Under the pieces are notes generated by a model, which saw only the letters and a program-made list of their open reading frames with translations, made no database searches and was not told the origin of the DNA. DNA of 64,000 bases from an uncultured bacterium (GTDB lineage: Bacteria > Muiribacteriota > Ozemobacteria > Ozemobacterales > Ozemobacteraceae). Below, one piece after another: positions 20,642 to 35,151 of the stretch. A program made the translations under genes and the position numbers. Position 1 is the stretch's first letter; every line of letters starts with the position of its first letter. Where the stretch lies: NCBI GenBank assembly GCA_964472075.1, contig CAYYIY010000002.1, positions 23,771 through 87,770 of the forward strand, in the 5' to 3' direction.

Positions 20642-20966
20642 GACTCACATGATACGCATCTCGAAACCTGACAGGCAATACACAGACTTCCGGTATCGTG
20701 CAAGCCAACCCCATGTGTTCTATTCCGGGCTTTCTCATCAGCATCAGGAGCGGTTCGTCTCTTGCTCTTATTCGTACCCGGGCACGTTCCCAAATCTGAC
20801 TATTCCCGCTTGTCGGGCATTGTCTGGCGGCTACATGTGGCAATGACTGGCAATACTGCCGTTGATGCTGCGCTTGACGCTGGTTTTCCTGACGGCATAA
20901 GATGGGCGCGAAACAGCTGTGTGCAGAAATTCTGCGGCAACCTTTCGAAGAGGATGTGAGCGATTC

Positions 20967-22298
20967 ATGGAACTGACGACCGAATTGATGGTGCAGGGGG
21001 CGTATGCCCTGGGGATCGGCGTGCTGGTCGGTCTTGAACGCAGTGTCTTCGACCAGCCGGCAGGTGAAGTTGCGGCGGGTTCGGAAGAGACGAAGGCCTC
21101 TGAAGCCGCTGAGGAAATGGAAGCGTCCGAGCTCGAGGGTGGCGAACCGAGCGGTGTGCGCACGTTTGCGACCTTCTCTCTCGTGGGTTTTGCCGCTGCC
21201 GCGGTCAATGTGCATGTTCCGTTCGCCGGCCCGGTGATTCTCGCCGGGTTGATTCTGCTGGTTCTGGCTCTGTACCGGCACACGCTGGTCAACAGCCCGG
21301 GAATGACTACCGAAGCAGCCGCTATCGGCACGGCTGTGCTCGGGGCCATGTGCCACAGCAATCCGCATTTTGCCGCCGTTCTCGCGGTGGTTCTGACCGG
21401 TATTCTCAGTTCCAAACAGTTCATGCACGAGACGATCCGAAAAATGCGGCGCGTCGAAGTGACCGATACGCTCAAGTTTCTCGTCATCATTCTGATCATT
21501 GTGCCGTTGTTGCCGAATCGGGCACTTGATCCGTGGGGAGCGGTGAATCCGTATAAGATCGGCTGGCTGGTTGTCCTGATCTCGGGTATCAGTTTTGTCG
21601 GCTACTTTCTGACCCGCATCATGGGCGCTCAGAAGGGATTGGGGTTGACCGGACTGCTGGGCGGGTTAACCTCTTCGACCGCGGTGACGGCGGCGATGGC
21701 TGAAGAGTCGCAGGCGGCCCCTCATTTGAAGGCCATCTGCGCGTTTGCGACCGTGGTGGCGAATGCCACTTCCTTCATGCGTGTGCTGATGATGGTGTTG
21801 ATTCTCGATACGGCTCTGGCGCGACAGCTCGCCTGGTCGATCGGCGGCATGGCCCTTACGGCGATCATTGCCGCTGTCCTACTCTGGATGGCCGCCTCGC
21901 GTGACAAGGTCACGGAAATCAAGGAGCGAGAGGGCCAGGTGAAGCTGAAGAACCCCTTCGCCATCAGCCCGGCCCTCAAGTTTGCGGCGTTCTTCGTGCT
22001 CATCATCTTCGTGTCGAAGGTAGCGCGCGAAAAACTCGGCAACGCCGGAACCTATCTGGCTGCGGCTTTTTCCGGGCTGGCGGATGTAGATGCCATCACG
22101 CTTTCGATGGCCGAACAGACCGGAAACGGCTCGCTCGAAGCGACGGTGGCGGTGCTGGCGATCACGATTGCCGTGGTTTCGAATGCCGTGGTGAAATCGG
22201 GTATCGCCATGTTCACCGGGGGGCGTGAATTCGGACGACTGGTTGCCCTGTCTCTCGGGGTCTCGATTGCCGTCGGGTTAACCATGGCCTGTCTGTGA
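20967..22298 (+). CDS. MgtC/SapB-family plus DUF4010-like integral membrane protein
   Basis: The N-terminus LGIGVLVGLERS is typical of MgtC. Multiple TM helices follow throughout. The track ORF was trimmed to the ATG at 20967. Confidence 0.65.
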   Translation: MELTTELMVQGAYALGIGVLVGLERSVFDQPAGEVAAGSEETKASEAAEEMEASELEGGEPSGVRTFATFSLVGFAAAAVNVHVPFAGPVILAGLILLVLALYRHTLVNSPGMTTEAAAIGTAVLGAMCHSNPHFAAVLAVVLTGILSSKQFMHETIRKMRRVEVTDTLKFLVIILIIVPLLPNRALDPWGAVNPYKIGWLVVLISGISFVGYFLTRIMGAQKGLGLTGLLGGLTSSTAVTAAMAEESQAAPHLKAICAFATVVANATSFMRVLMMVLILDTALARQLAWSIGGMALTAIIAAVLLWMAASRDKVTEIKEREGQVKLKNPFAISPALKFAAFFVLIIFVSKVAREKLGNAGTYLAAAFSGLADVDAITLSMAEQTGNGSLEATVAVLAITIAVVSNAVVKSGIAMFTGGREFGRLVALSLGVSIAVGLTMACL

Positions 22299-22440
22299 AA
22301 ACTCTGAAAGTGTGCTTCCGAACCCGTTTTTGCCGCCGGAAAAATTTCTGTTACGCGGCGAAGTCGGGCGGTGGTATTGATGAGTGAAAGTTGGAAAGGT
22401 GAAGTAGTCTTGCATCGAGATTCCAGCAGGAGGAACGAGT

Positions 22441-23280
22441 ATGAGCATGCATAGATTGAGACGGCTCTGTAAAGGCGGATTGTTTCTGCTCTTCATCTGT
22501 CTGATGTCGATCAGTCTGACCGGGTGCGCCTGGTTGGCCGCTTTGGCTCCGATTCTGTCGGCGATTGGTTCGGTTACCGGCATGGTTGGATCAATCGTCA
22601 GTATCTTCAGCCCTGAGACCGGCAGCAAGATCAGTCAGGTCGGCAATGCGATCTCCAGTACTGGTCAGAGTTTGCAGGGAGTCGCGAACGAAACCGGCGG
22701 CCGGCAGACAGGGCAGACGACTTCGTCTGTTCCTACCGGTACGAGTGCCCCCACAACCTCAGAAGACGGAACGACGATTTCGAGCTCGGCTACGACAGGG
22801 ACCTCGTCGACTTCTTCCTCGTCTTCGACCGGTACGACGTCTGGTGCGACGAGTGCTCCCGCTGTTGCCGCCGGCGGAAGCGCCGCGTCAAACGCCCAGT
22901 CGATGCTGTCGAGCGGCTTCATCAATCGCGGCTCAAAGGCGTTCGACGGCCGTCTCAACATTACGCAGTACGGCGGGCCGAGCGATCGTACCAAGGACAA
23001 ATACACCGAAATGGGTCTGGGCAATCGGAACAACAAGCTGCGCCCGACATCTCTGGCTCTTTCCCCTGATCTCATTCGCAAATACGGGTTGAAGGGTGGC
23101 GAGTCGATCTACATCAAAACCCCCCAGGGAACCAGGTTTCTCGGTCATTATGACGACACGACCGGCAACAAGAGTGAACCGAACGTCATTGATATCTATG
23201 ACAAAACCGACAGTCTCGGTCAGGACAATTTTCTTGCGACTATTCCGAAGGGCCAGTGGGAACTGGTGATCGGTCGATAA
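22441..23280 (+). CDS. Lipoprotein with an S/T-rich linker and a C-terminal 3D-like (MltA/RlpA-type) domain
   Basis: The lipobox is LTGC. A glycine-zipper hydrophobic segment follows. The C-terminal region, LALSPDLIRKYGLKGGESIYIKT...GHYDDTTG...NVIDIYDK, resembles the 3D domain. AGGAGG precedes the start. Confidence 0.55.
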   Translation: MSMHRLRRLCKGGLFLLFICLMSISLTGCAWLAALAPILSAIGSVTGMVGSIVSIFSPETGSKISQVGNAISSTGQSLQGVANETGGRQTGQTTSSVPTGTSAPTTSEDGTTISSSATTGTSSTSSSSSTGTTSGATSAPAVAAGGSAASNAQSMLSSGFINRGSKAFDGRLNITQYGGPSDRTKDKYTEMGLGNRNNKLRPTSLALSPDLIRKYGLKGGESIYIKTPQGTRFLGHYDDTTGNKSEPNVIDIYDKTDSLGQDNFLATIPKGQWELVIGR

Positions 23281-23293
23281 AAGGAGAACGAAC

Positions 23294-23935
23294 ATGAACA
23301 GCAATTCAGTTACTGTAAATCGAATACCGTTATCAAATGCTCGTGTAGTCTTGTCTCGACTCGTACTCATGGTTTTCTGCATCGCTCTGCTCGCCTCGGC
23401 GAACGTCGCTCAGGCGGTTTCCGAAGGCAATCCCGTGCCGATGAAGATATTGCCGCCGTCCGTCGATGCACCGGGTTCGCTTGATCAGGTAAAGGCGCCT
23501 GCCGGTGATCTGACCATGTTCTATTTGTTCCAGCCGCCCGAAGCCGCTCGATTTGGAGTCGTTGGAAAAGACGGCGGCATTGTCTGGGAAAAGGTTGCCG
23601 GGTTCCGCCCCATGGTCGACTACTTCTGGTCGAAAGACGGCACGAAGATCTTCTATGTCACCGACTGTATTCAGCCCGAGGCCGAACTGCGGTCGGAGTC
23701 TGACAAGACCCGAAGCTGGTTTTTTGTCCTGGATGCCGAGAGCGGAAAAACGCTTGCGGAAGGCGATCTGGATACCGACCTTCTGAATCTGCCGAAACAG
23801 TTGCCTGACGCGGTTGGGGCGTCTCACCTCATCGAAGCGACCTTCGAAGGTGACGTCATTACCGTGACGATCGATCACCAGGGGAAGAAAGTCAGTGCCT
23901 CGAAAGCGCTGAAAGATCTCAAACCGAGCAAGTAA
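23294..23935 (+). CDS. Hypothetical secreted protein
   Basis: AAGGAG precedes the start and a signal peptide is present. No recognisable domain was found. Confidence 0.5.
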   Translation: MNSNSVTVNRIPLSNARVVLSRLVLMVFCIALLASANVAQAVSEGNPVPMKILPPSVDAPGSLDQVKAPAGDLTMFYLFQPPEAARFGVVGKDGGIVWEKVAGFRPMVDYFWSKDGTKIFYVTDCIQPEAELRSESDKTRSWFFVLDAESGKTLAEGDLDTDLLNLPKQLPDAVGASHLIEATFEGDVITVTIDHQGKKVSASKALKDLKPSK

Positions 23936-24035
23936 TTCCCGACCGGGAAGGGTGCAACAGCACCCTCCTGGAATGAGCGGAAGAAAACGGAAAGATCAGA
24001 CGGCGGTGCGCTGCCGAACGGTGGGCGCATCGCCG

Positions 24036-24446
24036 TCAGACTTTTTGGGCCTCGATGACGGCCTGTGCGAGAGTCGGTACAAGTTCGGCCTGTGGCACGA
24101 CTCCGGCCAGTTTGATGACTTTGAGGACCACCGGGCAGACACCGACGAGCAGCAGGTGACCGGCAAAATCCTCGATCGTGCGCACCGTCAACTCCAGCAG
24201 CTGGGCGACTCCCATACTGTTCATCACCGGGCAGGCGGACAAGTCGACGATTAATCGGGTCTTCCCCTTCACCAGCGCCGCATCGGCAAGAGTATTCAGT
24301 TCTTTGCCGAGGCCTTCATCGAAATATCCGTTGACGGTAAAGACCGGGATTCCTTCCTGTTCTCCCGCTTGAATGACTGCTTTCACGACGCCCTCCTGTA
24401 CTCTGTGTACCCGCTCAATCGCAGGACCCAGGTAAGGGAATATCAT
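24036..24446 (-). CDS. STAS-domain protein (anti-sigma-factor antagonist, SpoIIAA/RsbV-like)
   Basis: The 136-aa protein contains LIVDLSACPVMNSMGVAQLLEL...LVGVCPVVLKVIKLAG, which matches the STAS fold pattern. Confidence 0.7.
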   Translation of the reverse strand: MIFPYLGPAIERVHRVQEGVVKAVIQAGEQEGIPVFTVNGYFDEGLGKELNTLADAALVKGKTRLIVDLSACPVMNSMGVAQLLELTVRTIEDFAGHLLLVGVCPVVLKVIKLAGVVPQAELVPTLAQAVIEAQKV

Positions 24447-24577
24447 AATCCGCGCACCTCATCAATCCGATCCGGAGTGGTCAGACCGTCTTCAGTGCCA
24501 GGCGGGGAAAATGAGACCAAGAGGATGTGATATACTTTGCGAGCTTCAGACTTCTTCTGTCAGAGGGTTCCCATCCC

Positions 24578-26929
24578 ATGTCCGAACAGGAACACCTTCA
24601 ACACTTGCGCGAGCTGCAGGCTCCGTTGAAATCGTTTCGCCTGTTTGCCATCGAACACTTCATCCGCGAGGGGCAGAGCCGTGAGATTGCTGCTGCGCTC
24701 GATGCGGCACTCATGAACGAGACCGACGAAGAATGTCGTATTCTGCTGGGGCATGCGATTTCCGAGGTGAGACGGCGCCTGGCGGCCTCGCTCGAGCCGC
24801 CTGCACGGGGAATGGAGGAGGTCGGCGGCGCGGAGTTCCCGGCCCGTTTTGCCGCAGCGGATTCGGCGGATCGCCTTACCCTGCTTCGACAGTTGCGCAA
24901 GGCGGATCTGTCGGCGTTGGCCGAGTTTGCGGTCGGCGCCTTTCAGCGCGAAACTCATCCGTTGGTCGCCCGCGACCTGATTCGCTGTTTCACGCCTGCA
25001 TGGCCCCAGGAAGCTCGTTCGATTCTCGGTCGGGCGCTGGCCTCGGAATGGCAGACCGTGAGATTCGCGGCTCTCGAAGCGCTGATCGCCATCGCGCCGC
25101 GCGACCTGCTGGCGTATCTGCCCGGTCTTCTGCGGCATGCCGACCCGAGAGTTCGCAGTATGGCCATCCGAGCGCTTGCCGCGATCGATGCTCCTGAAGC
25201 CGCTCGGCATCTGGAAGCTCAGCTGCTGGGCGGGGAGCGCGAAGGGCGCTGGTCTGCCTTGCGTGAGTGTGCGCGACTTCCGTTTGAACTGACCCGCTCC
25301 GTTCTTTTCGCCTATCTCGAAACCGAAAAAGATCAGGAACTGCTTGAAGCTGCCGGAGCGATCATTCTGGCGAATCCGGAGGTCGAAACGCCTTTTCGTC
25401 TCGCGGACCTGCTGTCGCGGCGTTCCGATCTGGGGGCGTGGCTCGGCCCTGTTCTTCAGAACAGCATTGCCGTCCTTCGTGATTCCGGGCAGCTGACGGA
25501 GGATAGCGACTCGTACCGCACACGAGTGCAGCAGTATGTCGATCGGCTTGCGGCACGTCGCCTGGTGCATCGGGCCGTCTCGGCGCTGGCATCGGGCGAT
25601 TCAACGCAGCAGGCCGAAGGCGGGACGTTGTTGCGTCAGCATCTGAACCGGCCTGTCGTTCGACAACTGCTCGAGGAAACGGTGCGTCAGGAATTGCCCG
25701 CCTTGCTTCAGCAGCAGCTGAGTGAGATTCTGCAACCCGAAAGCATGTCGCCGGCCGCCCCTGAGCTGGATCAATGGCCGTCGTCTGCTCCCGAGTCCGA
25801 GCAGTTGCGGTGGCTGGCGACTCGGCAGGCGGAACAGGTTCAGCAGTGGAGGCCTGCGGTCGAGAAGCTCGTGACAGACAGCTCCATTCGTTCGACCCTG
25901 AAAATCGGCGCTCTGCGTGCCCTGACTCGGTGCCGAACGAGCGGTTCGGCGTCCGCCGTGTTCCCTCTTCTCAATCATGCAGACGACGGTGTTGCCGCCG
26001 CAGCACTCGAATATCTCGGCTTTGCCGCTCCAGACGAGGTAGTTCCGCTTATCGGCAAGTACTTGAAAGCTGCTCGCCCGCGCGTGAGACTGGCGGCGAT
26101 TCGAGTCCTGCGGTCGGTCGATCCGTTCCAGGCTGTTTCCTCTCTGTTCAAGCTTCTCGAAACCTGCACTCCCGACCAACGGTCTCTGACCATGCAGTGT
26201 CTGGTGCAGTTCGAGTTTTCCCTGATTCGCGACCGTCTGGCCAATCTGTTGGAAAGCGGAAAAGCGCCGGAGATTCTTGAAGATGCTCTTGCTCTCTTCG
26301 ATGCCAACCCGGATGTCGGCTCTCTCTACCTGCTCTTTCGCCTGGGCCGACGCCTGGGAGGCAAACATGAACAGCGAATCGACCAGGTGCGAGCACGAGT
26401 GTCGGAACTCTTGATCGCCTCCGGGCAGTTGACCCCGGAAACGCTGAAGACCCTCGAAAACGGATTCCCGCAGCGTCTGCAGCTTGAAGACATTCGACGT
26501 GCCGGCCCGCGACCGGCCTACGCTCTTGCCGAGCTGGAACAGGAACCGGAGCGCGTGTGGCCGGTTCTGCGCGACACGATGCGACAGATGTTTCGAGAAT
26601 ATGGTCGCCACCTGCTCATTGCTCTCGTCGTCGGTTTGATTCTCGCCTGGGCGTTCGGTTTGCGACAGGTGCCGGTCGAAGTGCGTGCACGCTCTGGAGC
26701 GCTCATCCAAAGCGAAGTGACACGGGGTGAAGGAATGCTTCTGCAGGTCACGGATTATGGGTGGAAGATTCGGCTCACGAATGGCGTGATTTGGCATCTG
26801 TCCCCGCCGCCTGGCGGATTCCCCTTTATCATCGAAGGCATGAAGGTTGTGGTCGAAGCATCTCTCTTCAGACGCACGTCCGAAGGTGTCTTTCAAGGGC
26901 GCTGTGTTTCGTTCAGAATCAGCTTCTAG
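24578..26929 (+). CDS. HEAT-repeat protein with a C-terminal TM helix
   Basis: Repeated motifs with the pattern '..D..VR..A..AL..I' (HEAT/PBS-lyase type) occur, for example DPRVRSMAIRALAAI and RPRVRLAAIRVLRSV. One TM helix lies near the C-terminus. The start was chosen as the ATG at 24578. Confidence 0.6.
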   Translation: MSEQEHLQHLRELQAPLKSFRLFAIEHFIREGQSREIAAALDAALMNETDEECRILLGHAISEVRRRLAASLEPPARGMEEVGGAEFPARFAAADSADRLTLLRQLRKADLSALAEFAVGAFQRETHPLVARDLIRCFTPAWPQEARSILGRALASEWQTVRFAALEALIAIAPRDLLAYLPGLLRHADPRVRSMAIRALAAIDAPEAARHLEAQLLGGEREGRWSALRECARLPFELTRSVLFAYLETEKDQELLEAAGAIILANPEVETPFRLADLLSRRSDLGAWLGPVLQNSIAVLRDSGQLTEDSDSYRTRVQQYVDRLAARRLVHRAVSALASGDSTQQAEGGTLLRQHLNRPVVRQLLEETVRQELPALLQQQLSEILQPESMSPAAPELDQWPSSAPESEQLRWLATRQAEQVQQWRPAVEKLVTDSSIRSTLKIGALRALTRCRTSGSASAVFPLLNHADDGVAAAALEYLGFAAPDEVVPLIGKYLKAARPRVRLAAIRVLRSVDPFQAVSSLFKLLETCTPDQRSLTMQCLVQFEFSLIRDRLANLLESGKAPEILEDALALFDANPDVGSLYLLFRLGRRLGGKHEQRIDQVRARVSELLIASGQLTPETLKTLENGFPQRLQLEDIRRAGPRPAYALAELEQEPERVWPVLRDTMRQMFREYGRHLLIALVVGLILAWAFGLRQVPVEVRARSGALIQSEVTRGEGMLLQVTDYGWKIRLTNGVIWHLSPPPGGFPFIIEGMKVVVEASLFRRTSEGVFQGRCVSFRISF

Positions 26930-27018
26930 ACAGGTGGCAAAAAGTTGTTACGTTTCTGAAGGCACTATCGGTATTGCTTGCAGAACGTCTCGAATTTCAA
27001 GATCGGGGAGGTTGAAGT

Positions 27019-27645
27019 ATGGATATGCGTCTCATGCGTCGGTGGTGTCGAGGCGGACTCTTCGTGGTGTTTCTGGTGTTCATGTCGGTCAGTTTGACGG
27101 GGTGTGCGTGGCTGGCGGCTCTGGTGCCGATTCTGAATGCGATCGGCGCTGTAACCGGTATGGTCGGGGCGATTGTCAGTATATTCAACCCGGAAATAGG
27201 CGGAAAGATTTCTCAGGTGGGTGGGGCGGTTCAGCAGGGTGCGGCATCGCTGGGTGAGGCGGCCGCGCAGTTTCCGCAGACTTCTCCCGGAGGTGCAGCT
27301 CAGACGTCCTCGGCAGTTCCTACCGGAACTTCGGCCTCGACCAACAGTGAAGACGGCGGCAATGCGGCCGGCGTGCCTGATTCGACGCCGATCAACGTCC
27401 GTCCGGCTTCCCCGGCGAATTCCGGCTCAACCGGTTCGAAACCTTCTGCCGCTGCCGCTGCGAAACCGGCTCCGAGACCCGAAGGCGGCGTGGATCTCTC
27501 GAACCCCAATCCTGGTCCGTTTCTGCCTGAGTACAAACCGGCCTTTGATCAGCCGAGCAAGCCGGCGGGTGGTGAAAAGCCGGCGGATGGGAACAAGCCG
27601 ATTGACCTGTGGAACCCCAATCCAGGAACCATTTTGAAGGATTGA
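27019..27645 (+). CDS. Lipoprotein, paralog of 22441..23280 over the N-terminal module, with a proline-rich tail
   Basis: About 70% identity to the 22441 product over the first ~110 aa: the LTGCAWLAAL lipobox, the glycine-zipper helix and the SSAVPTGTSASTNSEDG segment. The C-terminus diverges into a PxxP-rich tail. GGGGAGG precedes the start. Confidence 0.6.
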   Translation: MDMRLMRRWCRGGLFVVFLVFMSVSLTGCAWLAALVPILNAIGAVTGMVGAIVSIFNPEIGGKISQVGGAVQQGAASLGEAAAQFPQTSPGGAAQTSSAVPTGTSASTNSEDGGNAAGVPDSTPINVRPASPANSGSTGSKPSAAAAAKPAPRPEGGVDLSNPNPGPFLPEYKPAFDQPSKPAGGEKPADGNKPIDLWNPNPGTILKD

Positions 27646-27742
27646 GCGAACACCGTGCGACTTGTTCCTCCGACATCGGTTGTCGAGGAATGGGATGAAA
27701 CTTGACCCATGATGCAGGAAACTGAAGCGGAAAGGAGCGGGA

Positions 27743-28297
27743 ATGGACCGGGCGGCGACGCGAGTTGACGACGAACGGGCCGTTGCCGAGGTTCTTGCCG
27801 GTCGCCGCGAGGCTTTTGATCGACTGGTGGTGCGTTATCTGGGTCCGGTTCAGGGCTACTTTCGCGGGTTCGGGTGCGCCGATCGGGCCGATGACCTGAC
27901 GCAGGAAGTGTTTATTCGGGCTTTTCGCTACCTGGGTTCGTACCAGACGGAGAAGTCGTTTCTCAGCTGGCTGTTGGGAATTGCCCGCAATGTCAGAAGA
28001 GATCTCAAGCCCTCTCTCGCGACGCCCACGGCCCCTGAAACCATGCCCGAAAGGGCTGGCGAGGGGCCGTCGCTCGAAGAAACAGCGGTTGCCGGAACCG
28101 AGGTCGAGGCGATTCTGTCGGTATTCCCCGCTTCCGATCGGCTCATCATCGAGTTGCGTCTGTTTCAGGAACTGGCCTATGCCGAAATCGGCGAACTGCT
28201 CGACCAGACCGAGGCGAACGTGCGGGTCAGATACCATCGCGTTCTCGCCCGTCTGCGTCAGGTCGTCCAGGAACGCAGGAGCATGCAACATGTCTGA
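27743..28297 (+). CDS. ECF-type RNA polymerase sigma factor (sigma-70 regions 2 and 4)
   Basis: Region 2 is LTQEVFIRAFRYLGSY. Region 4 is an HTH, ELAYAEIGELLDQTEANVRVRYHRVLARLRQ. AAAGGAG precedes the start. Confidence 0.85.
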   Translation: MDRAATRVDDERAVAEVLAGRREAFDRLVVRYLGPVQGYFRGFGCADRADDLTQEVFIRAFRYLGSYQTEKSFLSWLLGIARNVRRDLKPSLATPTAPETMPERAGEGPSLEETAVAGTEVEAILSVFPASDRLIIELRLFQELAYAEIGELLDQTEANVRVRYHRVLARLRQVVQERRSMQHV

Positions 28298-28811
28298 ACC
28301 AACCATCTGTGAAGTGATTGCCGAGACTCTCGGCAGCGGGTCTACTCTGTCTCCGGCGCAGACGTCGCATGTGAATTCGTGCCCGGCCTGCCGCGATCTG
28401 CAGTCCGGGCTTGCTCAGGTGAAAGCCGCCGGGTCCGCGTTCCCGGCGGTCGCGGCCGGCTCACCGCTGCTGGCGCGGATTCGGCAGTCCGTGGCGACTG
28501 AACCGCTGCCGACGCCTGTCGTCTCCGGGACAACAGGGCCGGCGATTGCCACAGCCGGGCTGGGTGCGGGCATGCTGTTGCCGGCAATTGTGATATGCTT
28601 GCTGCTGGCGGCCTTGCTCTGGAATGCCGTGCCGCCGACGGTTCCTGCTGTGTCGCCCGGGAGCAGTGCCCCGGCAACGGCGGGGGCGGTGCTCGTCGAG
28701 ACCATCGAGTCCATGACACCGGCCTCGTCGTCGTTTGTGATCACTCCTCCGGCTTCCGGTGCGGCGTCTGCGTCCTCGGCTCCGACTCAGAGCGAAGAAG
28801 GGAACAGATAA
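28290..28811 (+). CDS. Anti-sigma factor (zf-HC2-like, single TM)
   Basis: An ATGTCTGA 8-nt overlap with the sigma gene. A CPACRD zinc-finger-like motif and a TM helix, GMLLPAIVICLLLAALLWNAV, are present. The track ORF was trimmed to the coupled ATG at 28290. Confidence 0.6.
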   Translation: MSEPTICEVIAETLGSGSTLSPAQTSHVNSCPACRDLQSGLAQVKAAGSAFPAVAAGSPLLARIRQSVATEPLPTPVVSGTTGPAIATAGLGAGMLLPAIVICLLLAALLWNAVPPTVPAVSPGSSAPATAGAVLVETIESMTPASSSFVITPPASGAASASSAPTQSEEGNR

Positions 28812-30894
28812 ATTGAATTATACGGGTCAATTAGCAAAGCGATTCTCATCAGGCGCGGCTTTGCAGCTGATTCTCTTTCTGGTGTTGATCGTTTCAGGGG
28901 TGACTCTGGCGTTTTTTCAGCTGTCAGCGCAGGCACAACGAACGGCTTTTCGACTCGAACGCGGCGAAGTTCTGCGGCAGATTGTCGAGGCCGCCGATGA
29001 AGAGGCATTTGCGGTACTGCTGGCGGCGCTTGAAAACCCAGGCAGCACTTCGTTTCAGTGGCTCCTCGATCAGGGACGGAATCCGAAGGTTCTTCCCATT
29101 CAGGCTCCACTGACCGCGCAGACGGCGGCGACCATGGTCAGGGCCAGGCAGAAAACGACCCTCACGGTGGAAGCCCGGGTGGTCGACTTTACCCCGCGCG
29201 ATTTTGAAGGTGTGCCCTATTCAAGCGACGTGCGCGAAGGGGTCGGACGGATAGAGCTGACGACCATCTGTCGCCTGACCGACACCGGCGGCGGTGGTGG
29301 CGATGCCATCTGTCGCCTGATTCGCCGCCGTGACTACAAGATGGCCGCCATCGTGACGCCGCGAGGTTCCGGTCGCACCGGCGCCTCTCAAAATGCCGCT
29401 CTCGACTATGCGCTGCTTGTACGCCAGGGCCTGCAGGAGTTTCAACAGACCGGGGGGTTGATGCTGAACCAGAATCGTGTCCGTCTGGTCATCGATGCGG
29501 CGGGCGTGCCGTCGGGAAAACGGGGCAAAATTCGCTTCGGCGGCGCAGACGGCGTGGGAAACGCGATCGTCTGGCTGCAGATCGACGAGGCACGAAAGTC
29601 CATGTTGCCGACCGCGAAAACCCCGATTGAAATCACGAACCCGGAGTGCGAAACCTTGTTCGATCTGGCCGGCTGGCGCCGGCAGGAGATCGAAGCGAAG
29701 ATCAAACAGGCGAAAGAAAAGCTCGGTTCGAATTACAACGGCGATATCGAAGATTACATCAAAGCCGATACGGTGAAAAAGTTTCGCGGTATCGTCGGGG
29801 AGTTCAAGACCGGCGTGGTTCCGCTGGCCGCGAACGGTCCGACCGAGGCTGCCGACAAGATTCGTCAGTATCTCTGGTCTGAAGAGTGGAAAAAGGCGGC
29901 CGGCGGGTTACGGAATGTTCCCGACCGGTATGATGTGCCAAGTCCGGGGTGTGCCATGTTGAGCGAGAATGCGGGCGATGTTACCGCCGCTCTCGCGCAG
30001 GAAGTGTTGGAAGGCGGCATTCGCCAGCGTTTTCTCTACCATGCGACAATGTTTCTCGATATCTCGTCACTTGAAGACAAAGACAAGGCCGATGAGATCG
30101 CGAAGAAGCCCTGGTACGGATTCAACCCCGCGCCGTCCGGTCTTTCCGGGGCGGCCGATCAACGGTTTTACGATCGGTTGCCGCAGGTCGATGCGGCGAA
30201 GGGGGGCGGTCACCCGTTGTTTTCGCGTTTTGATGCCTCGTTCCTGTTCGGTGTCGGCGGCGGCAGCCTGGATGCTGCTCCCACCGATGCCGCGTTCCCT
30301 ATCGGACCGCTCTTCAACCGCCGCGGCAGCAGGATCTCGCCGGACCAGACTGGGACTGAAGGGTTTCGACCGTATTCAGGGTTCGGGCTGTGGGCGCGAC
30401 GACTTGACCGCGCGGCCTTTCTGCGGAGCGGCATGTATGACGCACAGGCCGGGCGTCTCCATATCGATGGAATTGTACAAATCATGGGGGGTGCGGGCGA
30501 CATTCTGAGTCTCGGGTCTCCCGACAAGCCGCTTCTCATCAGCGGCCGCGGCGTGCTGGTCGCCCCCGGGTTTCAGATTCGCGGCGAGATTCGCAAGGCT
30601 GACCCGGCGCGTGACCTGCTGGTGCTGATGACAAGACGCGGCAACATTCTGATCGACACGTCGCAACCCGTCGAAGCGTCGCTGATCGCGGCCGGTGACG
30701 ACCTGCAGCGCTCCGTCATTCCGTTGAAACCGATGCAGGTGACCGGTGCCGTCGTCGTCGATCGACTGAACACGCATCAGTGGTGCGCCGGCGAACATCG
30801 CCTGCGTTATGACGAGCATCTGCAGGTGCCCGAACCGCTGTTTCGCCCCGCGATCAGCCGGTGGGTGGTCTTCGAAAGGCTGGCGGAAGAATGA
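28759..30894 (+). CDS. Large hypothetical protein with an N-terminal TM anchor
   Basis: A single N-terminal TM helix (ALQLILFLVLIVSGVTLAFF) is followed by a soluble region of ~650 aa with no recognisable motif. The real start may be the TTG at 28813, directly after the anti-sigma stop and preceded by GAAGGGA. Confidence 0.55.
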   Translation: MRRLRPRLRLRAKKGTDKLNYTGQLAKRFSSGAALQLILFLVLIVSGVTLAFFQLSAQAQRTAFRLERGEVLRQIVEAADEEAFAVLLAALENPGSTSFQWLLDQGRNPKVLPIQAPLTAQTAATMVRARQKTTLTVEARVVDFTPRDFEGVPYSSDVREGVGRIELTTICRLTDTGGGGGDAICRLIRRRDYKMAAIVTPRGSGRTGASQNAALDYALLVRQGLQEFQQTGGLMLNQNRVRLVIDAAGVPSGKRGKIRFGGADGVGNAIVWLQIDEARKSMLPTAKTPIEITNPECETLFDLAGWRRQEIEAKIKQAKEKLGSNYNGDIEDYIKADTVKKFRGIVGEFKTGVVPLAANGPTEAADKIRQYLWSEEWKKAAGGLRNVPDRYDVPSPGCAMLSENAGDVTAALAQEVLEGGIRQRFLYHATMFLDISSLEDKDKADEIAKKPWYGFNPAPSGLSGAADQRFYDRLPQVDAAKGGGHPLFSRFDASFLFGVGGGSLDAAPTDAAFPIGPLFNRRGSRISPDQTGTEGFRPYSGFGLWARRLDRAAFLRSGMYDAQAGRLHIDGIVQIMGGAGDILSLGSPDKPLLISGRGVLVAPGFQIRGEIRKADPARDLLVLMTRRGNILIDTSQPVEASLIAAGDDLQRSVIPLKPMQVTGAVVVDRLNTHQWCAGEHRLRYDEHLQVPEPLFRPAISRWVVFERLAEE

Positions 30895-31382
30895 AACGAC
30901 GCTTGCAGTCGAGACGCCGGAGCGCCGCCTTCACGCTGATCGAGATCGTCATCGCTCTCGCTTTCATGGCTCTGGCTCTGCTCGGCTTTCTCGTCGTGGC
31001 ATCGAGCGCCAATCGACAATCCATGGATGCCTACTACGAGTTTGCGGCGTTGCAGGCAGCGCTCGAGCCGATCGAGGTGTTTCGGGCCTGCGGATTCGAA
31101 CTGATGGAGTCGTATGTCTCACATCCGCTCGAGGAATACCCGCCTGGTCTGCATGAACTGAAGGACAAACCCGGGTCGGCGGTTCAACACCCGGTCGAAT
31201 GGGAGATGTTTCAACGCGAGATCACCGTCGAACCGCCGGTACAACTTCCCTCGGCCGGTAATCGCCGCGCCGTGCGCGTCAGAGTGCGCGTGCAACCGAT
31301 CGAATCCACTCGTGCGGCCGGTTGGCTGACCCGCCCGGGAGGCGTGGCCGTCGAGAGCCTGATTGTCGAGCTGCCACGATGA
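30891..31382 (+). CDS. Prepilin-type (type II secretion pseudopilin / type IV pilin-like) protein
   Basis: The N-terminus, RRRSAAFTLIEIVIALAFMALALLGFLVV, is a class III signal with the conserved E at +5. An ATGA overlap with the upstream gene is present. Confidence 0.7.
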   Translation: MKRRLQSRRRSAAFTLIEIVIALAFMALALLGFLVVASSANRQSMDAYYEFAALQAALEPIEVFRACGFELMESYVSHPLEEYPPGLHELKDKPGSAVQHPVEWEMFQREITVEPPVQLPSAGNRRAVRVRVRVQPIESTRAAGWLTRPGGVAVESLIVELPR

Positions 31383-32236
31383 AACAGACAACGGTGTCCG
31401 AGTTGAAAAAGTGTTTGACGTTGATAATGAGCGCGAGAACGCTCATCGTGATTGCTCGCCTGTCGAACGTGCGCAGCCGGAGACGAATCACCTCGCAATA
31501 TGGGGCCGGCGCCGGAGTGACCCTGGTCGAGCTGCTGGTGGCGATAATTTGCTTCATGCTGGTCATGCTTCCGGTGTTTCAGGCTTTTTTGTCTGGGACC
31601 CGCACATCACTGACCGGCATGATGCAGGTGGAGACCACCATGGAAGCTCGACGCGCCCTGCGTCAGATTCACGCCGATCTGAAAGCCGCCTGTCTGCCGT
31701 TCGACAATCGTGGTTTGCAGGTGACGCTCGATCAACTGCTCTCTTCGGCGCTGAGCGACTCAGGACAGATTGCCTATTCGTTTCATGCCTTTCCCCGACA
31801 TGTCGATCCGTCGCGCACCATTGTGACCGAAGCGAGTGGGTTGAAACCGCATGTCGCCAATCGCATCATCTATCGTCTCGAGGTTCGCAAGCCTGGAGAC
31901 CCGCGCAAACAGCTGATCAGGGAAGAACGACCGCATGCGGGAACCGGCGAGACGGTGCGCACGACGGTTCTGTCCGAACGGGTCAACCATTTCGAGATTC
32001 GCACGGTGAACTTTCGCGGCAAAGTGCCGAGGTCGGCGTTCTTCGTCACGCTGCAACTCGTCGACTCGACCGAGACCGGTGCTCTCGATCGTTTACAGCC
32101 GGGCAGCGCCGATAAGCCGCGTGGTGTCGTGCTTGCCGATTACTGCGATATGATCGCTCCGACCTTCGTCTCTTCAATGCTGGCGCAGGAGGGAGTGAAT
32201 CGTACTTGGTACTCTGAACTGAGAGGAGCGCCGTGA
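31379..32236 (+). CDS. Prepilin-like protein with an unusually long leader
   Basis: GAGAG|VTLVELLVAIICFMLVMLPV is a prepilin cleavage/methylation-like motif, but it begins about 47 aa after the ATGA-coupled start. Alternative internal starts are possible. Confidence 0.5.
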   Translation: MKQTTVSELKKCLTLIMSARTLIVIARLSNVRSRRRITSQYGAGAGVTLVELLVAIICFMLVMLPVFQAFLSGTRTSLTGMMQVETTMEARRALRQIHADLKAACLPFDNRGLQVTLDQLLSSALSDSGQIAYSFHAFPRHVDPSRTIVTEASGLKPHVANRIIYRLEVRKPGDPRKQLIREERPHAGTGETVRTTVLSERVNHFEIRTVNFRGKVPRSAFFVTLQLVDSTETGALDRLQPGSADKPRGVVLADYCDMIAPTFVSSMLAQEGVNRTWYSELRGAP

Positions 32237-35151
32237 CCTCGGGGGTGTCCTTTTCGACTTATTCACGCCTTCTGAAGTGGCTGGGTCAGATTCTGATCTT
32301 CTTCGCGATTCCGCTCATGGTCATTACCGCCGGGTTCGAACGGCTCTGGGATAGACAGGAACGAGACTGCCAGGAACAGACATTCACGCGCCTCGACCGC
32401 AATCTGGCTCTGCTGCGCAAGCGCTCGAATACGATCATCTATCTCGGACAGCAGTTTGAAGCCTTGAAGGAATACATGCGCCAGTCACCGGCTCGCGAAC
32501 GTCGCGAACGGGTGACCCGAGCCGTACGTACGCTTCACGCTCGCTTTCCCGGCATGTTGCGTATCGCCGTGTTTGATGGAAAAGGAAATCGTCTGGCCGG
32601 TGAACTTGATCCGACGATTCCCGAATCGATGGTGCGTCGCCTCAGCGAAGTTCTGTGCGGAGACAAGGCGAGCAGACAGGCTGCGGCTGCTCGTCACCGC
32701 CCCATTCTTGCGGCCTTCATGGGGCCGGGAGTCGACCCGGAACATCTGGCGACCACGGGCAGAATTCGCCCCCAGGATGCCAATCCGGGCGGTGAATGGC
32801 GCTGGGTCTCATATACCAGCGCCAAGTTCGGTGCATTCTGCATCCAGATTCGCTTCGTGCCCGACTGGGACCTCATTCCCGTTCGAGATCAAACGCGACT
32901 GTTACGCACTCTGCGACCGAAGCGACTGGTCGACTTCGGCCTCGTCGACATTCGGCGTCAGTCGCATGCGCCGGCCGACGTCGCTGCAGCGCTTCGACAA
33001 TATGCCGTCTCGACACGATCGCATCATGTTCTGCCGGCATCGCTCGTCGCTCTGCAGCAGATCGATGCGGGCGTGTTCATCTGGGCCTCTTTTCCGAGGA
33101 GACTGCTGGGGAACTTTGACGGCCGCCGACAGCAGCTGATTTTCTGGGTCGCGATCGCCTTCAGTATTCTCTCCGTTGTTTCTGCGCGCATCATGTTCGG
33201 ATCGTCCGGGTTCGTGCTTTCGATTCGCCCGCGTCTGATTCTGCTTTTTGCTTTTGCGGGAGGCGTTCCGCTTGTGTTGATCGCTTTCGTTCAATGGGAT
33301 TCCCTTCTGGATCTGGAAAAGCGCCGCAGCCGTGAGATGATGGAGGTTATGGAACGCCATCTGCAGGCGATGGACAGTCGTTATGCTGATCTGCGTGCCG
33401 AGATGGAACAGAAGCTGGGAAAGCTGCTTCGGCAGGATCGATTCGCGGAGCTTGAGGCCGGCAACGGCTGGCGAGACGTGCTGGAAATCGTTCGCCAGTC
33501 TTTTTCGCCACGCGAAATGTACCTGTTCACTCCGGCAGGGAAACCGCTTTTGCGCTATCAAGAGACCGGTAATCCTCCGTACACGGACAAAAACATTCGT
33601 GAGGAAGGATCGGTTCGCCTGCTCGGCAGCTTGATTCGCACGTTGTGTGCGCAACTGCAACCGGTTGAGAATCAGGGAAGCGGTGAGATGGCCATGACGA
33701 TCGCCGAACAGTTTACCGGCGGTGGTCTCCCGGTCGGCGAAATGGTTTCCAACCTCGGAAAAGTCTTTGAAATCAGCCTTTTTCGCGACCAGCACTGGGT
33801 CTATCTGCAGCCGCTGCGCAACGCAAACGGTCGTATCGAGCGCATGGTGAACATCTCCTGGAAGCGAGACTTACTCGAAGGCGTGTATCTCCAGCGCGTG
33901 ATTCCGGAATTCGAAAGGATCATGCCCGGTGTTCGATTGATGGCCTGGAGTCCGATGACATCACCCGTACCGATTCCGGCTTCCTTCCCTATGTACGGTT
34001 CCTTGAGGGCCTTTCTGGCTCAGGTTGAAGCGCAGGGGGGAACGGTGTTCGGCGATCATCAGATACGCGGCCGTCGCTATCTGCTGACGGGGTTGAAACC
34101 GCGACGACTCTCTGATTACCTGCTTCTTGCGCTCTGTGAAGACGATTTCATCAGAAACGAGCGAGCGAAAACGATTCGGCAGATGGCCGGGTTCACCTTC
34201 GGATTGTTCGCCGTCACGCTGTTTCTCGGCTATCTGCTGTCGCAGCGTTTTCTGCGGCCGATCGGACACCTGACCACCGGCATTGAGGCCATTTCTGCGC
34301 GTGAATTCAAACATCGATTGCCGGTTGAAGATCTGGATGAACTCGGACGATTGTCGCAGACGTTCAATCACATGATGGAAGGATTGTCCGACCTGGCGGT
34401 TGGTCGAATTGTCCAGGAAAGCCTGTTTCCAACGGAAGAACTGGTCGTCGGATCATACCACGCCTTCGGACAGACACATGCTGCTACCGAACTCGGCGGA
34501 GACTATTACGACATCAAGCGTTTGCCTGACGATCGAATTCTGCTGATCATCGGCGATGTCACCGGACACGGCGTCGGACCGGCGATGGTCATGGCGATGG
34601 CGAAGATCATGGTCGAATACTGTCTGAGCGACTTTGATCTCGAGAGATTCACGGTTGCCTTCAACGATGCGTTGTTCAAACTCATGAAACGCAGGCGCTT
34701 CATGAGCTGCTTTCTGGCTATTGTCGACACGAAGCGACACCTGATACAGATGGTGAATGCCGGCCACAATTTCCCTTATCTGGTTCATGGTTCGGCGAAA
34801 CTGCTCGAAGACCTCGGCAATAGTTATCCGATCGGCAGTCGGTCGACGCTCAAGCCGAAAGTGGTCGAAATGCCGATCGAACCCGGAGACACGCTCGTAT
34901 TCTACACGGATGGTTTGATCGAAACCGAAGCTGACAGTCGGCAGATCGGTTATGAGGGCGTCGCGGCGGTGTTGCCGACCTGTATTGACGCAAATGTGCC
35001 GGCCTCTTGCGAACGTATCTGGACCTGGAACCGCAATCAGGCTCGCGGACAACGCCAGGAAGACGACATCACGGTTCTGCTGTTGCAGAGACAAGCAGTA
35101 CCTGTTCTCGAAGATCAGGCGAAGGACTGCCAGGGGCCTGGCGTGTGCTGA
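32233..35151 (+). CDS. Sensor protein with a TM-flanked extracytoplasmic domain, HAMP, and a PP2C/SpoIIE-type serine phosphatase (RsbU-like)
   Basis: PP2C motifs are ELGGDYYD, IGDVTGHGVGPAMVMA and FYTDGLIE. A HAMP-like segment precedes them. Two TM helices flank a periplasmic domain of roughly 300 aa. A GTGA overlap with the upstream gene is present. Confidence 0.8.
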   Translation: MTSGVSFSTYSRLLKWLGQILIFFAIPLMVITAGFERLWDRQERDCQEQTFTRLDRNLALLRKRSNTIIYLGQQFEALKEYMRQSPARERRERVTRAVRTLHARFPGMLRIAVFDGKGNRLAGELDPTIPESMVRRLSEVLCGDKASRQAAAARHRPILAAFMGPGVDPEHLATTGRIRPQDANPGGEWRWVSYTSAKFGAFCIQIRFVPDWDLIPVRDQTRLLRTLRPKRLVDFGLVDIRRQSHAPADVAAALRQYAVSTRSHHVLPASLVALQQIDAGVFIWASFPRRLLGNFDGRRQQLIFWVAIAFSILSVVSARIMFGSSGFVLSIRPRLILLFAFAGGVPLVLIAFVQWDSLLDLEKRRSREMMEVMERHLQAMDSRYADLRAEMEQKLGKLLRQDRFAELEAGNGWRDVLEIVRQSFSPREMYLFTPAGKPLLRYQETGNPPYTDKNIREEGSVRLLGSLIRTLCAQLQPVENQGSGEMAMTIAEQFTGGGLPVGEMVSNLGKVFEISLFRDQHWVYLQPLRNANGRIERMVNISWKRDLLEGVYLQRVIPEFERIMPGVRLMAWSPMTSPVPIPASFPMYGSLRAFLAQVEAQGGTVFGDHQIRGRRYLLTGLKPRRLSDYLLLALCEDDFIRNERAKTIRQMAGFTFGLFAVTLFLGYLLSQRFLRPIGHLTTGIEAISAREFKHRLPVEDLDELGRLSQTFNHMMEGLSDLAVGRIVQESLFPTEELVVGSYHAFGQTHAATELGGDYYDIKRLPDDRILLIIGDVTGHGVGPAMVMAMAKIMVEYCLSDFDLERFTVAFNDALFKLMKRRRFMSCFLAIVDTKRHLIQMVNAGHNFPYLVHGSAKLLEDLGNSYPIGSRSTLKPKVVEMPIEPGDTLVFYTDGLIETEADSRQIGYEGVAAVLPTCIDANVPASCERIWTWNRNQARGQRQEDDITVLLLQRQAVPVLEDQAKDCQGPGVC

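Follow-up and report, generated by a model that had tools for sequence, protein, structure and literature searches.

The bacterial lipoproteins SlyB, YfgH, OsmB and YiaD combine a lipobox with a glycine-rich helix of the small-xxx-small type, which serves for packing at the membrane, and belong to envelope-stress regulons. In Braun's lipoprotein (Lpp), an oligomerising helix that forms a hydrophilic trimeric coiled coil follows directly after the lipid-modified cysteine. Small exported proteins can also be linked to sigma factors: CseA of the Streptomyces sigE-cseABC operon and RseB of rpoE-rseABC are exported modulators encoded in operons of extracytoplasmic function (ECF) sigma factors. Here, we describe two genes, A and B, in a stretch of 64,000 nucleotides (the window) from an uncultured bacterium of the Ozemobacteraceae (GenBank assembly GCA_964472075.1, contig CAYYIY010000002.1). 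Their lipoprotein products begin with the same module (the N-module), which resembles each of these systems in part. Genomes with A-type and B-type genes are annotated as Candidatus Ozemobacteraceae, and the more distant relatives are metagenome-assembled genomes of Candidatus Riflebacteria; loci from these genomes are given L numbers and proteins P numbers. A literature search on Ozemobacter and Riflebacteria gave ecology papers only, none of which deals with the envelope or with these genes.

A and B are 61% identical over 113 amino acids (aa; BLASTP, E=1e-43). When the signal peptide and Cys29 are removed, the mature parts alone still align at 62% identity over 84 residues (E=1e-29), and the similarity is therefore not confined to a generic signal peptide, a possibility that an earlier interpretation made from the DNA letters (the sequence-only reading) had raised against its own proposal of a shared module. 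That reading put the identity at about 70% over residues 1–110; the figure is about right for residues 1–75 (67%) and too high beyond them, given the 61% over 113 aa. The segments it listed as shared (the LTGC lipobox, AWLAAL.PIL.AIG.VTGMVG.IVSIF and SS.VPTGTSA.T.SEDG) are present in both proteins, and its description of the C-termini as unrelated agrees with the BLASTP comparison of A with B, in which they show no similarity. A third copy of the N-module was not found in the window by tblastn. Both genes have a strong Shine–Dalgarno sequence 7–8 nucleotides (nt) 5′ of the ATG (AGGAGG and GGGAGG, respectively). Orthologs of A (P0002–P0005) are 53–72% identical to it across the full length, and P0015, P0016 and P0017 are positional orthologs of B, whose exact sequence is absent from the protein collection searched.

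The N-module can be divided into a signal, a helix, an amphipathic segment and a linker. The signal of A reads RLRRLCK, GGLFLLFICLMSIS and LTGC29, and B has an equivalent; both fit the pattern of lipoprotein signals, in which a lipobox of the form [LVI][ASTVI][GAS]C is expected near residues 15–35. The Gly–Cys of the lipobox is invariant, and the preceding Leu nearly so, in 17 of 17 family members including very distant ones. This invariance argues for genuine processing by signal peptidase II, after Sec-dependent export, which would leave a lipid-modified Cys29 as the first residue. Residues 30–57 (AWLAALAPILSAIGSVTGMVGSIVSIF) follow at once and are predicted to be helical. The small residues S40, G43, S44, G47, G50, S51 and S54 occupy one helix face within a 120-degree arc, with a periodicity that peaks at 105 degrees at five times the mean power, and the opposite face is made up of conserved bulky aliphatics. 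An (S/N)-P-E break separates this helix from the amphipathic segment, in which P58, G61, I64 and S65 are invariant; here the hydrophobic moment is the highest within the module and the mean hydrophobicity is about 0.1. An AlphaFold2 model of the mature N-module shows a helix, a break, a second helix and then disorder, at a mean confidence (pLDDT) of 49.5 that allows only a rough reading of secondary structure. A variable linker rich in Gln, Ser and Thr leads to the PT...SEDG motif, whose P, T, E and D are invariant in all nine A- and B-type proteins of the Ozemobacteraceae while the flanking linker varies; seven of them also keep the final G, where P0016 and P0017 have S.

The similarity between the two modules is old and has been kept by purifying selection, because synonymous sites are saturated while the amino acids are retained. 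DNA identity over the first 210 nt is 67% and drops to just 50% at third codon positions. By the Nei–Gojobori method, the proportion of synonymous differences (pS) is 0.69, the synonymous rate (dS) is about 1.9, which is saturated, and the non-synonymous rate (dN) is 0.25, giving a dN/dS of about 0.13 overall. The post-cysteine helix (codons 30–57) is under tighter constraint, with a dN of 0.11 against a dS of about 2 (dN/dS about 0.06). The saturated dS rules out a recent duplication; the sequence-only reading had proposed to date the event by comparing DNA with protein identity, and this comparison, once made, yields no date for the same reason.

A-type and B-type genes occur together in at least three genomes (that of the window, GCA_049305675.1 and GCA_029547365.1). 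Over residues 1–75, window B is 56–67% identical to A-type modules versus 45–53% to its own positional orthologs, which group among themselves at 56–68% identity. In a bootstrapped neighbour-joining tree, the modules of window A, P0002 (A-type) and window B fall together with a bootstrap value of 100, and six of seven diagnostic columns in window B are of the A type. The tail, by contrast, is still B-type, and among its B-type features are two VDLS.N.P-like repeats that P0016 has as well. This pattern points to an old event of gene conversion or recombination in which the paralogs exchanged the N-module, or else to modules that co-evolved with a partner common to both; clustering of the window B core with A-types is what would be expected if both modules must fit one partner.

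The N-module is not described by known families. Neither Pfam nor NCBIfam assigns a family to A, to B or to any of their sub-segments, and the scans give only sub-threshold matches to Mucin (in the low-complexity linker) and DUF6944; when N-modules are compared with Pfam by hmmscan at E<=10, only DUF6944 (E=3e-4, below its own cut-off) and chance matches appear. A likeness of GxKISQVGNAIS to entericidin, and one of the helix to glycine-zipper families, were both considered and then rejected, as scans with hidden Markov models (HMMs) gave no match. An exhaustive profile search of 1.84 billion representative sequences returns 13 proteins at E<=1e-3. A few more relatives come from two word-indexed searches that covered 5.8 billion proteins, which makes about 20 in all, none of them named. 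These relatives are small lipoproteins with differing C-termini. Scanning contigs with a profile of the short N-module alignment recovered no relatives; an alignment of the neighbouring HEAT-repeat protein did find loci. Judged by these searches, the N-module is real, rare and restricted to one lineage, the Riflebacteria.

The two genes also share a promoter-like element. The sole alignable part of their upstream DNA is TGTTACG-N17-GGTATTG, with identical spacing, and in the window this 14-position motif occurs at 22349 and 26946 only, allowing up to two mismatches (0.16 matches expected). Since the pattern was derived from these two sites, it was tested elsewhere as the strict core TGTTAC-N18-GGTAT with no more than one mismatch in 11 positions; a looser scan allowing two substitutions per half-site returned noise and was replaced by this one. 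The strict core has two matches on both strands of the 64-kb window, where chance would give about 0.07. Across four genomes it is found 5′ of seven of eight N-module genes of the Ozemobacteraceae at one mismatch or fewer, and the eighth has two mismatches. In L005 it stands upstream of both orthologs (the B ortholog without mismatch), and in L001 upstream of the B ortholog (one mismatch), with no match elsewhere in either locus. The A-ortholog loci L016 and L017, which were fetched later and are thus out-of-sample, have one perfect match each, 68 and 98 nt before the ATG, and the A ortholog of L018 has a two-mismatch variant in the same place. No other strict-core match is present in about 202 kb on both strands. 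At the sites in the window, L005, L001, L016 and L017, the motif comes directly after a conserved A-rich tract. The motif is degenerate in L007, which lacks the sigma and anti-sigma genes, and absent from L019, which has a barrel gene without an N-module. A consensus scan shows that it does not resemble the sigma-70 consensus, and finds no terminator-like hairpin between B and the sigma gene. TGTTAC-N18-GGTAT is therefore put forward as a candidate target promoter of the ECF sigma factor.

Beyond the module, A and B have different payloads. The C-terminal domain of A has a double-psi beta-barrel fold, which bears out one half of the '3D-like domain' of the sequence-only reading; the other half, a sequence relationship, does not hold, as neither the Pfam 3D nor the DPBB models match any of 14 barrel-family members at E<=10. 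Resemblance to barrels of the MltA, YuiC and RlpA type is thus in fold only: the domain has no profile match to Pfam 3D, DPBB_1 or any chain in the PDB, where searches with A and with a barrel-domain profile gave nothing meaningful, and in structural comparison it scores just as well against barrels that are not enzymes, kiwellin and papain inhibitor among them. Residues D238/D239 (in YDDTTG) and D251/D254 (in NVID.YD) are invariant; where the first '3D' Asp would be expected, the domain seems to have Ser (LALSP). Among the homologs of the barrel, P0008, P0009 and P0011–P0014 have plain lipoprotein or Sec signals and P0006 is fused to an SH3 domain, and because of these signals and this fusion the domain is clearly extracytoplasmic. 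It presumably binds or cuts glycan or peptidoglycan. A homolog of the same protein of about 213 aa, with no known domain, lies directly 3′ of the barrel gene in six of six loci (48–60% identity). L019 is one of the six, even though its barrel protein lacks the N-module and carries a Sec signal. This protein could be a partner or an inhibitor of the barrel protein. If these assignments are correct, the barrel domains would form a new sequence family of double-psi beta-barrels with an obligate partner protein. The tail of B contains two copies of [VI]DL[SW]NPNPG[PT][FI]L, and its ortholog P0016 has two copies of GVDLSKN.P; in place of such repeats, P0015 and P0017 share LED.F.PILP..V....W.AA. 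B-type tails thus evolve by exchange of short linear motifs.

A and B lie in a conserved gene cluster (table 1). As the sequence-only reading had noted, B stands directly upstream of the ECF sigma and anti-sigma genes, ending 97 nt before the former; the two regulatory genes overlap. L005 has the same order as the window: A, a 215-aa gene, STAS (on the opposite strand), the HEAT-repeat transmembrane (TM) protein, B, ECF sigma, anti-sigma, a gene of about 700 aa, two N_methyl pseudopilin-like genes and a HAMP-SpoIIE phosphatase. In the window, the phosphatase has 972 aa and the 711-aa protein has a PilX/GspK-like hydrophobic N-terminus; no ATPase or secretin is encoded near the 24036–35151 cluster. 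The STAS gene is conserved in L001, L005, L007, L011, L012 and L015, homologs of the HEAT protein adjoin N-module genes in L001, L005, L007, L011 and L012, and anti-sigma homologs are present in L001, L005 and L011. In L011, the HEAT C-terminus is followed by STAS, and then come a small lipoprotein, P0024, an ECF sigma with 40% identity and an anti-sigma of the zinc type. The order in L012 is SpoIIE, STAS, HEAT, 711-like, 173-like, 304-like, P0022; identities are 25–38% and a sigma gene is missing. In L007, HEAT and P0017 are followed directly by a 711-like gene, without sigma or anti-sigma. From the gene orders of L005, L011, L012 and L007, therefore, the constant partners of the module genes are the HEAT, ~700-aa, pseudopilin-like, STAS and SpoIIE proteins, among which a sigma/anti-sigma pair is often inserted. 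The sequence-only reading had asked whether each paralog sits next to such a pair: module genes do so in L005 and L011 and do not in L007 and L012.

The place of gene A relative to this cluster differs between genomes: in GCA_049305675.1, the block of A and its partner lies at the opposite end. There (L016) and in L005, the block consists of a spermine synthase, a 229/255-aa gene, A and the 213-aa partner; one genome has it upstream of STAS, the other downstream of SpoIIE; in the window, a DUF4010/MgtC gene (20919-22298) precedes A instead. Two further observations concern a Riflebacteria genome. In the metagenome-assembled genome nHGRbin4, L010 219-959 (= L012 20052-20792) contains four near-identical copies, 237 bp apart, inside a 532-aa gene, and the protein is for this reason internally repetitive. 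The same genome has another locus with a HEAT-protein paralog, L013 (JADFZL010000015.1 24210-46627), where an ECF sigma gene lies on the opposite strand and no N-module lipoprotein is present within 10 kb.

Table 1. Coordinates of features in the window (positions without a locus number) and of related sites in other loci.
Feature	Position	Strand	Description	Basis
Promoter-like motif, first copy	22349..22377	+	TGTTAC-N18-GGTAT behind an A-rich tract; 64 nt upstream of A's ATG	
Gene A	22441..23280	+	279-aa lipoprotein: N-module, S/T-rich linker, double-psi beta-barrel domain	open reading frame
A residues 1-29	22441..22527	+	basic n-region, h-region, lipobox L-T-G-C29	lipobox conservation
A residues 30-57	22528..22611	+	post-Cys helix with Gly/Ser face, ending IF-S/N-P	dN, periodicity, insertion energy
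A residues 58-85	22612..22695	+	Gly-punctuated amphipathic segment (PE.G.KISQVG...)	alignment, hydrophobic moment
A residues 98-110	22732..22770	+	linker motif PT...SEDG	alignment
A residues 146-279	22876..23277	+	double-psi beta-barrel domain, invariant YDDTTG (237-242) and NVID.YD (248-254)	
213-aa secreted protein	23294..23935	+	obligate partner of the barrel gene	adjacency in 6/6 loci
Terminator-like hairpin	24018..24036	+	closes the A-213 bicistron	consensus scan
STAS-domain protein	24036..24446	-	anti-sigma-antagonist type	Pfam STAS E=4.6e-10
HEAT-repeat protein	24527..26929	+	800 aa; C-terminal TM helix and ~80-aa extracytoplasmic domain	HEAT_2 E=5e-19
Promoter-like motif, second copy	26946..26974	+	TGTTAC-N18-GGTAT; 45 nt upstream of B's ATG	
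Gene B	27019..27645	+	208-aa lipoprotein: N-module (residues 1-113), Pro-rich tail	open reading frame
B residues 30-57	27106..27189	+	post-Cys helix with Gly/Ser face	alignment, dN, periodicity
B linker motif	27319-27357		PT...SEDG	alignment
B tail repeat 1	27490..27525	+	VDLSNPNPGPFL	sequence reading
B tail repeat 2	27601..27636	+	IDLWNPNPGTIL	sequence reading
ECF sigma factor	27743..28297	+		Sigma70_r2/r4, TIGR02937 E=7e-20
Anti-sigma factor	28290..28811	+	zinc-finger type, HxxxCxxC (HVNSCPAC), one TM helix	sequence reading
711-aa protein, two N_methyl pseudopilin-like proteins, HAMP-SpoIIE phosphatase	28759..35151	+		Pfam; homologs in L001, L005, L007, L012
Promoter-like motif elsewhere	L005 9870-9898, 15011-15039; L001 9899-9927; L016 4905-4933; L017 498-526			strict scan
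213-aa homologs elsewhere	L005 10914-11561; L016 5869-6534; L017 1532-2173; L018 1957-2604; L019 4313-4924			

We propose that the shared ~75–113 residues serve specifically to tether or dock lipoproteins, as a module that is co-regulated in the two genes and was probably grafted onto the barrel gene, an explanation that we hold to be about evenly poised between right and wrong. Lipidated at Cys29, the protein would continue directly into a 27-residue alpha-helix with an aliphatic and a Gly/Ser face, then into a Gly-punctuated amphipathic helix and a disordered linker that ends in PT...SEDG. The first helix appears too weakly hydrophobic, and wrongly oriented, for a normal TM span, and would most likely lie at the membrane interface, next to the acyl chains. 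Its small-residue face may pack on another helix, either that of a second module copy (A with B) or the TM helix of a cluster partner. In this way the module could keep two different periplasmic payloads at one membrane site: in A, a double-psi beta-barrel of the MltA/YuiC/RlpA/expansin type working with the 213-aa partner, and in B a Pro-rich tail that bears two short repeated motifs. One and the same promoter-like element would drive both genes and would probably be recognised by the ECF sigma factor encoded next to B, such that B, sigma and anti-sigma would constitute an autoregulated ECF operon and A-213 a second target of the regulon. A most likely arose when promoter and N-module were grafted onto an existing barrel gene. 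B in particular recalls CseA and RseB as a small exported protein encoded beside sigma and anti-sigma genes, with which it is probably co-transcribed; it differs from them in having no homology to either and in being the first gene of its putative operon, and the module genes of L007 and L012 do without sigma altogether.

Other explanations differ mainly in what the helix does. The module might work like SlyB, YfgH or OsmB, as an outer-membrane glycine-zipper element that forms homo-oligomers (rings or nanodomains) under envelope stress, with the C-termini as decorations. Such lipoproteins provide a precedent, and the module shares with them the lipid anchor, the Gly-rich small-xxx-small helix and an apparent stress-type sigma control. 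The small-xxx-small residues do lie on one helix face, but there is neither a match to the Gly-zipper_Omp or glycine zipper 2TM families, even at E<=10, nor a two-TM hairpin further into the protein; a single helix runs from the position after the cysteine. The module also differs from the SlyB type in its conserved amphipathic GxK(I/L)(S/Q)Q.G segment, its unrelated payloads and its confinement to Riflebacteria and to one gene cluster, and the strict linkage to HEAT and pseudopilin-like genes suggests a specific partner. Hydrophobicity is marginal: on an approximate, position-independent biological hydrophobicity scale (Hessa et al. 2005), the most favourable stretch of 19 residues has an insertion energy of +1.9 kcal/mol in A and +1.7 kcal/mol in B, and the helices of distant relatives are plainly amphipathic (P0021 +9.3, P0024 +6.7). 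We consider a SlyB-like function unlikely. The membrane-embedded or oligomerising glycine-zipper module of the sequence-only reading is thus supported in part: the helix with its Gly/Ser face after the lipobox is upheld, and its hydrophobicity is marginal. We give very little credence to the stronger form of membrane embedding, in which the post-cysteine segment is a true TM helix (as part of an uncleaved two-helix hairpin, or crossing from outside to inside) and the C-termini are cytoplasmic. Kyte–Doolittle means over 19 residues (1.6–1.9) and an Eisenberg <H> of 0.68–0.74 over 27 residues are borderline for a TM helix, but the insertion energies above are positive; on the same approximate scale, the TM helices of three kinds of neighbour (anti-sigma, 711-aa and pseudopilin-like proteins) lie at −1.8 to −4.3 kcal/mol. 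The invariant lipobox speaks for processing, no positive-inside cluster follows the helix, and the length of the helix varies, with insertions of 3–7 residues in P0003–P0005. If Cys29 is lipidated at the outer face, a full span by residues 30–57 would place the barrel in the cytoplasm, contradicting the export of its homologs; a true TM span was rejected on this topology and on the insertion energy.

A periplasmic stalk like Lpp, in which the helices after the lipid-modified cysteine assemble into a soluble coiled-coil oligomer and hold the payload at a distance from the membrane, would account for a helix that starts directly at the cysteine and is followed by a second, amphipathic one. The first helix, however, is aliphatic with a Gly/Ser face, is almost without charged or polar residues other than Ser, Thr and Asn, and would not be soluble, and the second has no heptad pattern (its power peaks at 155 degrees), which makes such a stalk very unlikely. 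It is just as improbable that the similarity is mere history, left by recent duplication or by gene conversion of the 5′ gene end, in a module that serves export only. Sequence exchange did happen, as the grouping of the window B core with A-types attests, but the amino acids are kept in spite of saturated synonymous sites, conservation reaches 45–85 residues beyond the cleavage site, and both paralogs have kept the module across several genomes, as have distant relatives. The most consistent picture would be a helix that adjoins the lipid anchor and either lies in the interface or packs on a partner, because the barrel is exported in homologs, hydrophobicity is marginal and helix length is variable.

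A broader version of the docking proposal, which we regard as doubtful, is that the N-module is the address tag of an undescribed envelope machine of the Riflebacteria that docks interchangeable lipoprotein payloads, with promoter and tag moving together as a recruiting cassette. The machine would consist of the HEAT-repeat TM protein, three pseudopilin-like proteins, a STAS/SpoIIE partner-switch and, optionally, the ECF sigma and zinc anti-sigma factors. The Gly/Ser-face helix might dock, for example, on TM helices of a pseudopilin or of the HEAT protein, and the cassette could recruit new proteins such as a barrel enzyme.

The proposed functions are all inferred and have no bearing on any long-standing open question. 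What is new here is a very rare lipoprotein N-terminal module, a barrel sequence family and a candidate sigma-factor target motif, and these provide handles on an uncharacterised HEAT/pseudopilin-like/partner-switch system. If the proposal is true, the locus would be a natural example of modular protein evolution in a little-studied candidate phylum, in which a promoter and a docking tag, copied to a second gene, allow a cell-wall-type enzyme domain to join both the regulon and the membrane site of a signalling cluster.

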